A stretch of DNA of 64,000 nucleotides from Gammaproteobacteria bacterium (GCA_002698665.1 NZZP01000036.1:5125-69124), one strand, 5' to 3'; counted from the stretch's first letter, positions 1,372 to 46,511 are shown. Notes: a model not told the origin generated them from the letters alone. Numbers and translations are program-made.

Positions 1372-1815
1372 TTATATGTTTTCTTCTTTAGCTGAAATTG
1401 CTTTTTTAGCCATTTCGGCACTATAAGCTTCCCCTTGCCAGAGCATGCTATAGACGATTTCTTCATTACCGTTTTCGCAGACATCGATGACTTTTTGGAA
1501 TAATGGTTGAAATGTCTCACTTTTGTGAGAGTTTTCATGATCATCATAAGATTTCCAGAAAGTTATAATCAAGGCTTCCCTATCTTTTAATTCAGAATCT
1601 AATGCTTTGCCCATATTACTTCCTTCATTGGAAATCTGTCCACTGTTTAAAACTACCATGCCACCAATAAAACCTGTTTCAGAGTGATATGTTTTAACAT
1701 TCTCACACATCATGGCTACTCTTTCTTGCAAATCATCAAGAGTATATTCCTTTTTAAGGATAACTCTATTAATTGTTACTATTCCGTCGTAAGGAAAATT
1801 ATTTATTAAAGCCAT
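1372..1815 (-). CDS. Hypothetical protein (147 aa), family not recognised
   Basis: Clean ORF with a plausible start, divergent from queA. It has non-repetitive composition and a conserved-looking core (GFIGGMVVLNSG, MLWQGEAY). No family assignment could be made by eye. Confidence 0.5.
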   Translation of the reverse strand: MALINNFPYDGIVTINRVILKKEYTLDDLQERVAMMCENVKTYHSETGFIGGMVVLNSGQISNEGSNMGKALDSELKDREALIITFWKSYDDHENSHKSETFQPLFQKVIDVCENGNEEIVYSMLWQGEAYSAEMAKKAISAKEENI

Positions 1816-41577: not shown

Positions 41578-42453
41578 TTGCACATGAAAAAAATAAAAAA
41601 AGCCGTTTTTCCAGTTGCCGGTTTGGGAACAAGGTTCTTGCCCGCCACTAAAGCAAGCCCCAAAGAAATGCTTCCAGTAGTTGATAAACCACTTATTCAG
41701 TATGCTGCTGAGGAAGCAGTTGATGCCGGTATTAAGCAGTTAATATTTGTTATTGGCAGGACTAAGAATGCTATCATAGATCACTTTGATTCTAGCCCAG
41801 AACTTGAGAGAGAATTAATTGATAAAAAAAAGAATAATCTATTGAATTCCGTCAAGAGTATCGTACCAAATAATGTGGATTGTGTATTTGTCAGACAAAA
41901 TATTCCAGCTGGACTTGGTCACGCAGTGCATTGCGCTAGACACATTGTTAATGATGAACCATTTGCAGTTATTTTGGCTGACGATTTAATAAAATCAAAA
42001 AAATCATGTCTTAAACAAATGACAGATATATATTCTAGAGAGCAAAGTCCTTTGATAGCTATTCAAAAAATTAATAAAAAAGATAGTGATAAATATGGGA
42101 TTATTGAATACGGTGATAAACATAATAATTTATATGATATAAAATCAATTATTGAGAAACCTAAACCAGCTAAGGCTAAGTCTAATCTTGGTGTTGTTGG
42201 AAGATATGTGCTGCCTCCTTCTATTTTTAACAATATTGCATCATCTAAGCCTGGTGTAGGCAAAGAAATACAGCTAACTGACGCAATAGAGAAGTTAATT
42301 TTAGAGCAGCGTGTCTTAGGCTATGAATTTGAAGGTACCAGATTTGACTGTGGAAGCAAAATTGGCTATTTGCAAGCTACAACAGAATATGCGCTTGAAC
42401 ATAGTGAAGTGAGAAAAGAATACAAAAGTTATTTAAAAAAATTGAAAATATAA
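41578..42453 (+). CDS. galU: UTP-glucose-1-phosphate uridylyltransferase
   Basis: KAVFPVAGLGTRFLPATKASPKEMLPVVDKPLIQY is canonical GalU. Confidence 0.85.
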   Translation: MHMKKIKKAVFPVAGLGTRFLPATKASPKEMLPVVDKPLIQYAAEEAVDAGIKQLIFVIGRTKNAIIDHFDSSPELERELIDKKKNNLLNSVKSIVPNNVDCVFVRQNIPAGLGHAVHCARHIVNDEPFAVILADDLIKSKKSCLKQMTDIYSREQSPLIAIQKINKKDSDKYGIIEYGDKHNNLYDIKSIIEKPKPAKAKSNLGVVGRYVLPPSIFNNIASSKPGVGKEIQLTDAIEKLILEQRVLGYEFEGTRFDCGSKIGYLQATTEYALEHSEVRKEYKSYLKKLKI

Positions 42454-42502
42454 AATTAATGTTGATGGTAATTAAAAATTGAATTATCATGCGATAACTT
42501 AT

Positions 42503-42575
42503 TCCTCGGTAGCTCAGTTGGTAGAGCGAGTGACTGTTAATCACCAGGTCGGCGGTTCGAGTCCGTCCCGAGGAG
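42503..42575 (+). tRNA. tRNA-Asn (anticodon GUU)
   Basis: Cloverleaf: TCCTCGG-TA-GCTC-AGTTGGTA-GAGC-G-AGTGA-CTGTTAA-TCACC-AGGTC-GGCGG-TTCGAGT-CCGTC-CCGAGGA-G. Close to E. coli asnT. The anticodon stem has an A27-C43 mismatch. Confidence 0.85.
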
Positions 42576-42652
42576 TATCTAATAATTATTACTCTTCACT
42601 ATTTACCAAGATATATGTTATCTTATATATTACATATAATATTTAGCTCGTC

Positions 42653-43405
42653 ATGAAAAAAATAATTTTAAAACTGTTGCATGCCATTAGATATATATTG
42701 GGGAGAATTATTATACACTTGATACCAAGAAACTTACCATCGCTAAGAGAACAAGAAAATATTACTTGTTATAAATTATATGAAAAAGATGAAATTGAAA
42801 AATGTTATCATTATTTTAAAAAATACTTCAATACTGCTATGCATTTAGAAGGAGACAATTTACTGGTCTATGGCATCAAACATGCAATTGAGATTAATGC
42901 ATCTAAAAACAATTTATTTTTAGAATTTGGTGTTTGGAACGGAAGAACTATTAATTTATTTTCTAAATATATTAATAAAAATCGGATTTATGGATTTGAT
43001 ACATTTTCTGGGACTCCTGAAGATTGGAAAGGGACAGATAAACCCAAAGGATACTACTCAGCAAATAATAAAATACCTAAACTTAATGAAAACTGTATTC
43101 CAATCAAAGGACTTGTTAAAGATACTTTGCCATCATTTTTATCTAATAATAGCGGCAAGAGGATAAGATTTGTACATATGGATTTAACTATATATGAGCC
43201 TACATTATTTGTGCTTAATTCCATAAAACCATATCTAGCAAATGATGCAATAATTATTTTTAGAGGTTTTTATAATTATCCTAGTTGGCAAGAAGGTGAA
43301 TTCAAGGCTTTAACAGAGTCTTTTGATGAAAAAGATTATAAGTATATTGCCTTCTCAAAAGATGGTAGTCCAGTAATAATAAAATATATCAGACCTAACT
43401 CTTAA
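42653..43405 (+). CDS. TylF/MycF-family (macrocin-O-methyltransferase-like) SAM-dependent sugar O-methyltransferase, copy 1
   Basis: Motifs LEFGVWNGRT (SAM site), GFDTFSGTPEDW and HMDLTIYEPT (metal site D-x-D-x-Y) fit the TylF family. The gene is paralogous to 44656-45318. Confidence 0.6.
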   Translation: MKKIILKLLHAIRYILGRIIIHLIPRNLPSLREQENITCYKLYEKDEIEKCYHYFKKYFNTAMHLEGDNLLVYGIKHAIEINASKNNLFLEFGVWNGRTINLFSKYINKNRIYGFDTFSGTPEDWKGTDKPKGYYSANNKIPKLNENCIPIKGLVKDTLPSFLSNNSGKRIRFVHMDLTIYEPTLFVLNSIKPYLANDAIIIFRGFYNYPSWQEGEFKALTESFDEKDYKYIAFSKDGSPVIIKYIRPNS

Positions 43406-44598
43406 TGAAGATTTGTTTTTTTACAGAAAATACTCATAAAGGTGGTATGGATAAATTTATTTATACATTAGCTAATAATTGGCCCAACAAAGAAGATGAA
43501 ATAACGATACTTTGCAATAGCTCTCATCCAGGTTATGAAGATATAAGGAATCATTTAAATTCTAAATATATTATTAAACCATCTAATATAAAGCTTTCAT
43601 GGGAATTAAAAAATAATATCGCTAATTATTTACCTAGAAGTATCATTCCTGTAATATCTTTTATTCTGAAATATGTCCTATTTCCATATCAAATCTTTAA
43701 GTTATATGTCTATTTTAAAAACTCAAGCTTCAAAAAACTATTTACAATCAATGGTGGCTATCCTGGTGGATATTCATGTAGAGCAGCACCTATTGCATGG
43801 TATTTAGCAAAAAAGAATAAATCTAAAATGGCTTGTTTGAGTGCCGTTAAAGAAACATTTTGGTATGCAGCGCCTTTTGAATACCTCTTAGATAAAGCAT
43901 TGTATTTTTCTTTGAATGAACTGATTTTTCCATCTCAGTATGTCAAGGATACACAATTACTAAGGGCATCACTAAAAAATATATCTTCTACTGTTATTTA
44001 TAATGGTATTGATAAATTTCCTATAGAATTTCGCTCTAGTAAAGATAATAAAATAATTAAATTTTTAATGCTTGCAACATATGAAAAAATTAAAGGGCAT
44101 AGTCTTCTATTAGAGTCTTTTAAAAAAGTCATAGATAACTTTGACTGTACAAATTTTGAATTAACTATTGCTGGCTATGGTACTAATGAACAAAAAAGAA
44201 ATATAATTGACGAGATCAAATCAAAAAACCTAAATAAGTTTGTTAATCTATTAGATTTCCAAGAAAATGTACTAGAATTATACCAAGCCACACATGCTGT
44301 TATTATTCCATCCATTAAATATGAAGGATTGCCACTTACAGCTATAGAAGCAATGTCACTTCAAATACCGATTATCTCAAGTGATACAGGAGGTCTAAAA
44401 GAAATATTTAGCTTAAACAGGGATATAGGGCTTATTTCTAGTACCTCATCTTCTTCCATGTCAAAGAATATTTATATGTTCATTCAAAATCCTAATAAAC
44501 ATAAAATATATGGTCAGCATGGAATAGATACTTTTACAAAATATTTTACTAGTGAAGTTTGTGCAGCTAAGTATTATAGCAGTCTAATTAACCACTAA
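43405..44598 (+). CDS. GT4 family glycosyltransferase (Glycos_transf_1)
   Basis: C-terminal EGLPLTAIEAMSLQIPIISSDTGGLKEIF is the GT4 EX7E-type nucleotide-sugar-binding region. The GT-B N-terminal domain is present. Confidence 0.75.
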   Translation: MKICFFTENTHKGGMDKFIYTLANNWPNKEDEITILCNSSHPGYEDIRNHLNSKYIIKPSNIKLSWELKNNIANYLPRSIIPVISFILKYVLFPYQIFKLYVYFKNSSFKKLFTINGGYPGGYSCRAAPIAWYLAKKNKSKMACLSAVKETFWYAAPFEYLLDKALYFSLNELIFPSQYVKDTQLLRASLKNISSTVIYNGIDKFPIEFRSSKDNKIIKFLMLATYEKIKGHSLLLESFKKVIDNFDCTNFELTIAGYGTNEQKRNIIDEIKSKNLNKFVNLLDFQENVLELYQATHAVIIPSIKYEGLPLTAIEAMSLQIPIISSDTGGLKEIFSLNRDIGLISSTSSSSMSKNIYMFIQNPNKHKIYGQHGIDTFTKYFTSEVCAAKYYSSLINH

Positions 44599-44655
44599 TT
44601 TCTGATATAATCTATATTATATTTAATGATTGTGTTTTAATTACAGATATAATTT

Positions 44656-45318
44656 ATGTTTAGAAATCTAATTAAATTTATACTCTCACGAATCAGTTAT
44701 GATTATTATGTCAGAGGCATGACTTTAAATTTACAGCATGCTGTTTTTAATAAAGTACGATTATCAAAAAAATATAATAAAAGAGAATTACTTTGGAAAT
44801 CTCTCCTAGAAGAATTAGATGATAGAGAGATATTATATTTAGAATTTGGTGTCTGGAAAGGATACTCCATAGAATACTTTGCAAGAAATATACAATCTTC
44901 ATCATCTAAATTTATAGGCTTTGATAGTTTTGAAGGATTGCCAGAAGACTGGTATACAAATCCAAAAGGTACTTTTAACTTAGATGGTAAACCACCTAGT
45001 GTTCATGATAATAGAGTTAGTTATATCAAAGGATGGTTTTACGATACAGTACCGCCTTTTATTGATAGGCAGTTGCAGGCTCGAAACTATAATGAACTTA
45101 TAGTTCATTATGATGCTGACTTATATAGCTCTACTCTTTTTTGTCTATCACAGATCGATCGTCTGAAGAAACCATACTATGCCATATTTGATGAGTTTGT
45201 AAGAGATGAAACTAGAGCGTTATATGATTATATGCAATCTCACGGAGCTGAAATAGAGTTTTTAGGTTATACCGCTGAGAATCAAATGCTTTGTAAAATT
45301 ACCCCTCATAATTCATAG
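44656..45318 (+). CDS. TylF/MycF-family SAM-dependent sugar O-methyltransferase, copy 2 (paralog)
   Basis: YLEFGVWKGYS, GFDSFEGLPEDW and HYDADLYSSTLF repeat the motif set of the upstream copy. Confidence 0.6.
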   Translation: MFRNLIKFILSRISYDYYVRGMTLNLQHAVFNKVRLSKKYNKRELLWKSLLEELDDREILYLEFGVWKGYSIEYFARNIQSSSSKFIGFDSFEGLPEDWYTNPKGTFNLDGKPPSVHDNRVSYIKGWFYDTVPPFIDRQLQARNYNELIVHYDADLYSSTLFCLSQIDRLKKPYYAIFDEFVRDETRALYDYMQSHGAEIEFLGYTAENQMLCKITPHNS

Positions 45319-45332
45319 CATATTATATAAGT

Positions 45333-46511
45333 CTATTTCAGCGAGTTAGTAATTCTCTTCATAGCATCTTCTAGAGAATGCATATCAATAGCAATCGATA
45401 TTCTTATATGCCCTTCTAAACCAAACGCACTTCCTGGTACAACAGCTACTTTAGATTCATTAAGAAGGTGTAAAGCAAGCTCACTATCATTATTAATAGA
45501 ACTACTATTTTTAATATATTCATGGAATGAAGGAAATACATAGAATGTACCATCAGTTTCTTTGCATAATACTCCATCTATTAGATTTAGTTGATTAACT
45601 ACAAAGTCATGACGTTTTTTATATTCATCACGCATCATTGGTAATTCATTACATTCGTTTATAAGAGCTGATGTAGCAGCTGCTTGTGATATTGAACTTG
45701 CACATGAAGTACTTTGTGACTGTAATGTTTTCATTTTTTTTATAATGTCTTTATTACCCGCAGCATATCCTATTCTCCATCCTGTCATAGAGTATGCTTT
45801 TGATACACCATTTAAAACTATCGTTCTATCTTTCAATTCTGGACAGACATTAATTATATTATGAAATTTTTCTTTATACCAAAATATATGTTCATATATA
45901 TCGTCGGACGATATGAATATGCTTGGATGTTTTAGCAAAACTTTTGATATAGATCCTAATAGTTTTGAGTCAAAATATTTTCCGCTTGGGTTATTGGGAC
46001 TATTAAGCATTAACAACTTTGTTTTTTTTGTAATCAGGTCTTGTAGTTTATCGATATCAATATCGAAGTTATCTTTATACGTTGTTTCAAGAAGAATTGG
46101 AATACCACCAGAATATACAACCATATCAGCATACGAAACCCAATAAGGTTGAGGAATAATAACTTCATCTCCATTATTAATGAGAACTTGAAGTAGGTTG
46201 AAAATTGATTGTTTACAACCAGCAGAAACAATTATTTCGTCAGCATCATACGACAAGTTATTTTCACTTTGAAATTTATGTATTATTGCATTTTTTAGTT
46301 CCGTTGTACCATCTACAGCAGTATATTTTGTGTTACCCTTATCTATTGCAATCTTTGCAGATTCCTTTATATAGTTAGGCGTGTCAAAGTCTGGTTCTCC
46401 AACTGTTAGAATTACAACATCCTCCCCACTTTGGCGCATTTCTTTAGCCTTGGAGGTTAATGCCATTGTTGAAGATGGTTTAATTAATTTTATTCTATTT
46501 GAAAACGTCAA
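45333..46511 (-). CDS. Class I (AAT-like) aspartate/aromatic aminotransferase
   Basis: PLP-dependent aminotransferase class I fold (GEPDFDTP, SKAYSMTGWRIGY with the PLP Lys). Divergent from uvrB, as in Pseudomonas. Confidence 0.8.
   Translation of the reverse strand: MTFSNRIKLIKPSSTMALTSKAKEMRQSGEDVVILTVGEPDFDTPNYIKESAKIAIDKGNTKYTAVDGTTELKNAIIHKFQSENNLSYDADEIIVSAGCKQSIFNLLQVLINNGDEVIIPQPYWVSYADMVVYSGGIPILLETTYKDNFDIDIDKLQDLITKKTKLLMLNSPNNPSGKYFDSKLLGSISKVLLKHPSIFISSDDIYEHIFWYKEKFHNIINVCPELKDRTIVLNGVSKAYSMTGWRIGYAAGNKDIIKKMKTLQSQSTSCASSISQAAATSALINECNELPMMRDEYKKRHDFVVNQLNLIDGVLCKETDGTFYVFPSFHEYIKNSSSINNDSELALHLLNESKVAVVPGSAFGLEGHIRISIAIDMHSLEDAMKRITNSLK

Follow-up and report, generated by a model that had tools for sequence, protein, structure and literature searches.

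A three-gene glycosyltransferase and methyltransferase cassette in a variable slot beside tRNA-Asn of a marine gammaproteobacterium

Three genes that lie directly 3′ of a tRNA-Asn gene in a marine bacterium raise a double question: whether they form a variable block acquired from elsewhere, and what such a block would make. The genes belong to a stretch of 64 kb (hereafter the window, whose coordinates are used throughout) from an uncultured, AT-rich (~30% GC) marine gammaproteobacterium, perhaps of a SAR86-like or comparable streamlined clade. A family GT4 glycosyltransferase (GT4) is encoded in the middle and is flanked by two methyltransferases (MT1 and MT2); all three are listed in GenBank as “hypothetical protein” (CMD43_04665/70/75; MAR78219-21). 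The block occupies a slot, between the tRNA and a convergent aspC-like gene, that is empty or holds unrelated genes in related species. The best explanation, which we consider probable though not secure, is that of a miniature flexible island. In this reading, a recombination hotspot bounded by the 3′ ends of tRNA-Asn and aspC holds a cassette of three genes for glycan decoration, whose products attach an O-methylated sugar to a surface glycan.

A variable slot between tRNA-Asn and aspC

The initial annotation had placed three open reading frames (ORFs) 3′ of tRNA-Asn, and our coordinates agree with it, with a gap of 76-77 nucleotides (nt) between the tRNA and MT1. The features of the locus are as follows (aa, amino acids; SAM, S-adenosylmethionine; AF2, AlphaFold2).

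41578-42453, plus strand: galU, a core gene and conserved left flank, present in all syntenic relatives whatever the cargo of the slot (Pfam, synteny)
42502-42576, plus strand: tRNA-Asn (GTT), which anchors the variable slot on the left (ARAGORN and Rfam; 42502-42576 / 42503-42575)
42577-45332, plus strand: inserted block of 2,756 nt (comparison with the empty-site relatives L040 and L005)
42577-42652, plus strand: AT-rich spacer 5′ of MT1, in which homology to the sister lineage L096 stops at 42582-42589, the left breakpoint
42653-43405, plus strand: MT1, 250 aa, a CalS11-like class I SAM methyltransferase (Pfam, PDB search, AF2/Foldseek)
43405-44598, plus strand: GT4-family (GT-B) glycosyltransferase, 397 aa (Pfam, PDB search)
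44656-45318, plus strand: MT2, 220 aa, a TylF/MycF-type O-methyltransferase (Pfam, AF2/Foldseek)
45333-46511, minus strand: aspC-like aminotransferase, a convergent core gene whose stop codon bounds the slot on the right

With GalU as the probe, seven syntenic relatives were recovered. Their backbone order is rplI-dnaB-fdxA-galU-tRNA-Asn-slot-aspC-uvrB-thrS, their tRNA-Asn genes are 97-100% identical, and none of the seven has a homologue of MT1, GT4 or MT2. Two of the slots are empty: in L040 the tRNA is followed by AGT and then by TTA, which is the aspC stop (3 nt), and in L005 by AT and then CTA (2 nt). Because the aspC stop begins 2-3 nt past the tRNA in these relatives, the insert in the window is exactly 42577-45332. 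The remaining five differ among themselves. L004 has an AT-rich spacer of ~130 nt after the tRNA and no ORF of at least 50 aa, L003 and L006 carry cutA, and L001 carries cutA together with an unknown 169-aa ORF. The slot of L012 (11175-13403) contains a 420-aa coiled-coil, signal-peptide-like protein (partly N-masked) and a 294-aa protein resembling BBP2_2 beta-barrel porins; this cargo is surface-related, and of a wholly different kind from the window cassette. Since backbone synteny holds whatever fills the slot, the proximity to galU, which had been regarded as suggestive, is functionally uninformative: galU, tRNA-Asn and aspC form a conserved backbone around a slot that is either empty or holds unrelated cargo. 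As a separate observation, five independent metagenome contigs with identical GalU (L078-L082) stop 17-137 nt past galU, at or just before tRNA-Asn. These ends are compatible with assembly branching from slot variants or with breaks at the conserved tRNA, and we do not count them as evidence.

A much closer comparison is provided by the sister lineage L096 (contig MDTG01343969.1), found by a metagenome scan with the GT4 clade. Its flanks are 96.5% identical to those of the window at the nt level over 4.4 kb, reaching 13 nt past the tRNA, and homology breaks 6-13 nt beyond the tRNA. L096 has an extra 873 nt before MT1, which encode a canonical TylF-type methyltransferase with a GTG start. The proteins that the two lineages share are 52% (MT1), 88% (GT4) and 95% (MT2) identical, so that divergence within the cassette peaks in MT1. 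The same gradient is seen in synonymous divergence (dS), which is 0.12-0.16 for the backbone, 0.167 for MT2 (backbone level), 0.37 for GT4 and ~1.5 (saturated) for MT1. In sliding windows, identity is 91-98% up to 42582 and 58-73% within MT1; it rises abruptly to 82-92% precisely where MT1 meets GT4, and is again 95-97% from ~44340. A breakpoint inside GT4, at ~44328, is supported by the maximum-chi-square test (chi2 36.4; 0/500 permutations as high), with a third-position mismatch of 21% on one side and 8% on the other.

Recombinational replacement predicts such a pattern, in which divergence falls into three strata and an entire gene is gained or lost. For the two haplotypes compared, which reveal neither donor nor direction, the mosaic fits replacement of cassettes or alleles anchored at the tRNA. 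The block is accessory and variable at tRNA-Asn, as had been proposed, both between species (the seven relatives) and between close lineages (L096). We also observed that the 3′ half of galU (41926-42450) is 91-95% identical to L096, compared to 97-98% further upstream, and that its dS of 0.162 is the highest of the four backbone genes compared (dnaB, 0.120); divergence may rise beside the hotspot.

The block has no recognizable mobility apparatus. There is no integrase-like gene in it or adjoining it (the flanks are galU and aspC), the terminal 15 or 21 nt of tRNA-Asn have no second match in the 64 kb when up to 3 mismatches are allowed, and no flanking direct or inverted repeats were found, the repeat search returning only the MT1/MT2 homology and AT-rich noise. 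The initial annotation had judged that this is not a classical integrative island, and we agree: the location at a tRNA 3′ end is classical, whereas an integrase, a distal repeat and atypical composition are all missing. A compositional anomaly, for which a comparison with flanking genes had been suggested, did not appear, with GC, GC content at third codon positions (GC3) and codon log-likelihood all at |z| ≤ 1.3 relative to 58 window genes. Typical composition would be expected if the genes were acquired long ago or came from a donor whose GC is about as low; the loci that bear cassette homologues have 22-31% GC.

MT2 ends 14 nt short of the aspC stop. In the window and L096 alike, the stop of MT1 and the start of GT4 share the sequence TAATG, so MT1 and GT4 are probably translationally coupled. 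A promoter-like site at 42602-42631, in the spacer upstream of MT1, is no better than chance (24 promoter-like sites were found, with 33.5 expected, in a scan that is uninformative in AT-rich DNA). A terminator scan, which AT-rich DNA makes similarly uninformative, found none, and the Rfam scan gave nothing beyond three tRNAs. The other window ORFs that were scanned, a part of the total, are housekeeping genes or lack a Pfam match. One of those without a match is a 147-aa ORF (1372-1815, minus strand) that adjoins tRNA-Leu(CAA) at 1033-1114. Its GC3 (z = 2.7) exceeds that of every other window gene, and it may be another small accessory gene next to a tRNA.

The three enzymes of the cassette

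The assignment of the middle gene to family GT4, made in the initial annotation, holds. The protein matches Glycos_transf_1 (PF00534) above threshold (3.8e-26, 92.1 bits) and PF13692 (74.7 bits), with a weak N-terminal match to PF13439, and its sequence matches in the PDB are TarM, BshA-like proteins and PglH/WlaC. The E-x7-E motif of the family is present as EGLPLTAIE (E307 and E315), and E315 is invariant in the clade.

Both methyltransferases have the fold of the TylF superfamily of sugar O-methyltransferases by Pfam, PDB search and AF2/Foldseek, as had been predicted, and no different fold emerged. The TylF model of Pfam (PF05711), named in the prediction, divides them: MT2 lies above its threshold and MT1 below it. 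For MT2 the score is 32.0 bits (1e-7; cut-off 23), the best PDB sequence matches are MycF, SpnH and NovP, and the AF2 model (predicted local distance difference test score, pLDDT, 89.8) has Mg-dependent class I O-methyltransferases as its top Foldseek matches. Its acidic set is complete (D153, D155, D179 and E180), with D155, D179 and E180 invariant and D153 near-invariant across 45 members of the MT2 family. These residues align to MDGD...IIDDY of MycF, whose acidic residues we take to be metal ligands and base, and we assign the aligned MT2 positions the same presumed roles. The MT2 family is large (3,684 hits, other phyla included). Identity of MT2 to its relatives is 45-60% overall, with 45-50% for proteins from other phyla and 59% for a solo gene in a different marine genome. 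Among relatives on long contigs, this solo gene (L083:8001-8654) comes closest to MT2; it lies between guaA and a gene for a dinB-like polymerase, without an adjacent glycosyltransferase.

MT1 scores 37.3 bits (5.6e-9) on Methyltransf_24, above the threshold of 26.3, and 16 bits on TylF, under the gathering threshold of 23 bits. Its only match in a phmmer search of PDB sequences is CalS11, a TDP-rhamnose 3′-O-methyltransferase (1.2e-11). CalS11 is also the first Foldseek match to the AF2 model (pLDDT 91.6; 1.8e-11), followed by NovP, MycF and SpnH, with MeT1 also matched. Both MTs thus share with the family of TylF, MycF, NovP, CalS11 and SpnH a class I Rossmann fold with a lid and the SAM motif, and MT2 also keeps D-x-D...D-E. 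They differ from that family in their host, a streamlined marine heterotroph without an antibiotic cluster, and, for MT1, in T179 and R204-G205.

The differences in MT1 fall in the active site. The SAM-binding residues E91, G93 and D116 are intact. The putative catalytic base of CalS11 is Asp191 (PMC4760980), the second Asp of FDLDLY, and this residue aligns with Thr179 of MT1 (MDLTIY); FDEL of CalS11 aligns with FRGF, so that an Asp-Glu pair is replaced by R204-G205. All motifs that had been quoted for the two MTs are present, namely EFGVW(N/K)G, GFDTFSGTPEDW / GFDSFEGLPEDW and HMDLTIY / HYDADLY. The “metal” motif that they were said to share is nevertheless not common to both, since only one of the four acidic residues is left in MT1 and the change of D to T is the loss of the putative base. 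With the catalytic-base Asp and two metal-ligand positions gone, MT1 would have an altered or non-catalytic role.

This configuration is rare. Both Asp residues are kept in 115 of the 120 sequences of the MT1 family, and deviations are always coupled; Arg at the position of the FDEL Asp occurs in this family only in MT1, in the L096 allele (N/R-G) and in P0001 (N/R-A). In a wider survey of 160 domains, taken from the 150 best representatives among 1.84 billion protein clusters, ~89% have retained D-D-D-(E/D/Q/N), and Arg does not occur in any further domain. Because the SAM residues are intact and dN/dS is ~0.25 between the window and L096 alleles at 52% aa identity, MT1 is, as far as its sequence can tell, a maintained protein with altered chemistry and not a decaying pseudogene. 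The family is small and mostly marine (199 hits), and MT1 is 43-51% identical to homologues of other marine genomes, Pelagibacter included (43%). Two relatives are of separate interest. In the Pelagibacter contig L089 (8001-9962), an MT1-family methyltransferase (43%) with an intact acidic set stands beside a GT87-like membrane glycosyltransferase, between rpsD and grx/bolA, a further small glycan cassette among housekeeping genes; and P0396 is a 1,656-aa protein with the unusual architecture of six tandem methyltransferase domains (36% identity to MT1), each of which retains the acidic residues.

The initial annotation had also read the two MTs as a duplication within the locus, and this reading does not survive. 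BLASTP aligns MT1 and MT2 at 37% identity over 131 aa, a partial alignment (E = 9e-22), compared to 43-51% (MT1) and 45-60% (MT2) with outside sequences. Since each is closer to outside relatives than to the other, their paralogy is ancient, the two MTs come from different old subfamilies, and we reject a local duplication on these identity patterns.

Relatives of the cassette in other genomes and phages

Orthologues of GT4 at 44-45% identity over the full length (L091, L093-L095 and L098-L101) always have a TylF-type methyltransferase directly after them. The L091-type pair, whose MT is canonical, belongs to another AT-rich marine lineage and sits between tRNA-Cys and tRNA-Leu, where it splits the array pgsA-tRNA-Gly-Cys-Leu, and downstream of it are genes for Wzy_C, UDP-glucose dehydrogenase, GT2 and a nucleotidyltransferase. 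This pair resembles the window cassette in its orthologous GT4, in the TylF-superfamily methyltransferase directly after it and in being flanked by tRNA. It differs in occupying another tRNA site, in having one MT, and in adjoining Wzy_C, UDP-glucose dehydrogenase and GT2, which are absent from the window. Its MT is of a different subfamily, ~25% identical to MT1. The extra MT of L096 is 66% identical to the L091-type MT, and on this basis the tRNA-Asn and tRNA-Cys/Leu sites are linked. A homologue of MT1 (49% identity) is likewise found in a cluster of Wzy, GT2, GT4 and WecA-like genes. GT4s at ~30% identity show no pattern of MT pairing or of tRNA location.

Further genes were noted around these relatives. 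An ORF of 255/332 aa without a Pfam match and FTHFS also lie downstream of the L091-type pair (L091:7827-10259; also L093 and L098-L101). In L092 (262-2374), a relative of GT4 (50%) is divergently paired with an unrelated methyltransferase of the Methyltransf_11/25 type, followed by ABC/PBP genes; pairing of a GT4 with an MT thus recurs with a non-TylF methyltransferase.

Methylated sugars are present in phage glycans, and both MTs have phage relatives. They match phrog_6608 (~1e-25), at a distant 29-39% identity by tblastn, and 114 of the 117 related phage records are mycobacteriophages, the others being two Gordonia phages and one Nitrosopumilaceae virus. The mycobacteriophage relatives (Che8, Corndog type) are annotated as O-methyltransferases or as fusions of glycosyltransferase and methyltransferase. 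In these phages too, the relatives of both MTs (phrog_6608) are paired or fused with glycosyltransferases; they differ from the cassette in belonging to actinobacterial phages, in their distant similarity and in having a virion protein as the target. No relative of GT4 was found on 2.9 million viral contigs. With this result and the distance of the MT matches, a phage vector was rejected.

Proposed function, alternatives and significance

In the mechanism that we favor, GT4 would transfer one sugar from a nucleotide-sugar to an existing glycoconjugate, most likely the outer core of lipopolysaccharide (LPS) or lipooligosaccharide, or a capsule-like polysaccharide. MT2, predicted to be Mg2+-dependent with a complete active site, would O-methylate a sugar hydroxyl. 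MT1 likely still binds SAM, and may either have an altered, metal-independent chemistry or act as a non-catalytic or specificity partner. Homologous recombination, acting through the conserved sequences of the tRNA, of the 3′ cassette part and of aspC, would replace cassettes or alleles without an integrase, and the product would be a determinant of the surface “glycotype”. We infer the acceptor, the sugar, the position of methylation and the selective driver, which may be diversification of the glycotype, for example against phages or grazers. The glycan-gene surroundings of the MT1 and GT4 homologues count in favor of this reading, as do the mycobacteriophage relatives of the MTs. The initial annotation is borne out in part: the variable tRNA-adjacent glycan module, the TylF-fold MTs, the GT4 and the non-classical island stand, while the duplication, the link to galU and the shared metal motif do not.

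The closest known parallel is that of flexible genomic islands, which comprise additive hotspots at tRNAs and replacement clusters of glycotype genes exchanged by homologous recombination through conserved flanks (PMC4898812; PMC11898729). Like the islands of Alteromonas and the O-chain cluster of Pelagibacterales, the window slot is a fixed site between core genes, with glycan cargo and a tRNA at the insertion site; close lineages differ, and the mosaic of divergence is compatible with exchange through conserved flanks. The window cassette is tiny by comparison (3-4 genes and 2.8 kb, rather than tens of kb), and it lacks the partial tRNA repeat that additive cassettes have. The slot mixes the two types, with unrelated cargo between species (additive) and allele replacement between close lineages (replacement).

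Several observations weigh against the surface-glycan island. The cassette is present in all contigs with identical AspC that are long enough (n = 17 contigs) and in 13 of 13 contigs with identical MT1; it appears to be fixed within the narrowest population, with variation only at ~96% average nucleotide identity and beyond. Its composition is typical, so that a lateral origin rests on comparative absence and not on composition. As to function, no genes for LPS, capsule or a flippase were found near the cassette among the scanned window ORFs, all scores of GT4 against NCBIfam equivalogs are far under the cut-offs, with no characterized equivalog matched, and the missing catalytic residues of MT1 mean that two O-methylations are not assured.

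Part of this evidence could be turned toward other explanations. That the three genes are simply vertically inherited core genes of the clade would accommodate the matching composition, the presence in every narrow-population contig and the backbone-level dS of MT2 relative to L096. This is the least probable of the readings, and is already contradicted by the seven syntenic relatives, none of which has the genes and two of which show an empty site of 2-3 nt, and by the differences in gene content and allele strata in L096. The lack of LPS genes near the cassette among the scanned ORFs agrees better with glycosylation and methylation of a protein (a pilin, flagellin, S-layer or outer-membrane protein) than of LPS or capsule. 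So does the PDB match of GT4 to PglH/WlaC of Campylobacter protein N-glycosylation, as do the mycobacteriophage O-methyltransferases and fusions related to both MTs, Che8 having been reported to carry capsid glycans (PMC11256854). Yet no gene for an oligosaccharyltransferase, flagellin or pilin is near the cassette, marine homologues adjoin Wzy_C, WecA-like and GT2 polysaccharide genes, and the phage similarity is distant (29-39% identity). A protein target is therefore, in our view, unlikely, though it deserves more weight than the other alternatives.

A flippase, a polymerase and a ligase are also missing from the cassette. Their absence would suit a pathway complete in itself that makes a small glycoside, or a methylated oligo- or polysaccharide that stays inside the cell. 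The model here is the mycobacterial cluster for methylmannose polysaccharide (MMP), in which a retaining GT4, ManT, is accompanied by two O-methyltransferases (MeT1 and pMeT3) and MmpH in an arrangement conserved among mycobacteria (PMC9883506). The two share a compact set of one GT4 and two O-methyltransferases, and MeT1 matches MT1 in structure (Foldseek E = 5e-6), but only at rank 20 and at 10-12% identity. GT4 shows no sequence relation to ManT, which is absent from its PDB sequence matches, an MmpH-like hydrolase is missing, and content and alleles vary between close lineages, where such extreme allelic diversity and gene gain or loss are typical of exposed structures and not of cytoplasmic ones; we consider an MMP-like pathway distinctly improbable. 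Tailoring of a glycosylated secondary metabolite, as by TylF, MycF, NovP and CalS11, is suggested by the nearest solved structures, all of which are sugar O-methyltransferases of natural products. It is very improbable given that no genes for polyketide synthases, nonribosomal peptide synthetases or deoxysugar pathways were found among the scanned ORFs of the 64-kb window or within 10 kb on either side in related contigs, that the genome is streamlined, and that the family is widespread in marine heterotrophs in polysaccharide contexts. To an anti-phage “conflict system” we give equally little credence. GT4 does score 35.9 bits on PF20706 (GT4-conflict), above the threshold of 26 bits, and a variable hotspot would be a fitting location; the same region, however, scores 92 bits on the generic Glycos_transf_1, PADLOC returned no match for MT1, GT4 or MT2, and the three proteins have no nuclease, NTPase or sensor partner.

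A bolder extension of the favored explanation can be formulated for the flexible island and its relatives together. The pair of GT4 and TylF-superfamily MT would be a small module that, without an integrase, settles time and again on the 3′ side of tRNA genes in streamlined marine gammaproteobacteria, and MT1 a new, fast-diversifying, metal-independent branch of TylF/CalS11 with Arg in place of the Mg2+-ligand Asp and the base lost. We offer this as a speculation and consider it unlikely. If it were true, MT1 might methylate an anionic group (a uronate, the carboxylate of Kdo or a phosphate), or might be a non-catalytic specificity subunit of GT4.

Current concepts are not changed by this locus, which agrees with what is already established for flexible genomic islands and glycotypes. 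Its interest is modest, and lies in the presence of the same GT4-MT module at two tRNA sites and in the rare Arg-bearing, acid-less lineage of MT1, which poses a small and testable question of enzymology. The family assignments improve the annotation of three genes that had been hypothetical. Beyond this, the locus shows at base-pair resolution how glycan functions vary in a streamlined ocean bacterium without the machinery of mobile elements: a gap of 2-3 nt between a tRNA and a convergent core gene is the landing pad, and of the apparent breakpoints of the swaps, one lies at the tRNA, another where two genes meet and a third within a gene.

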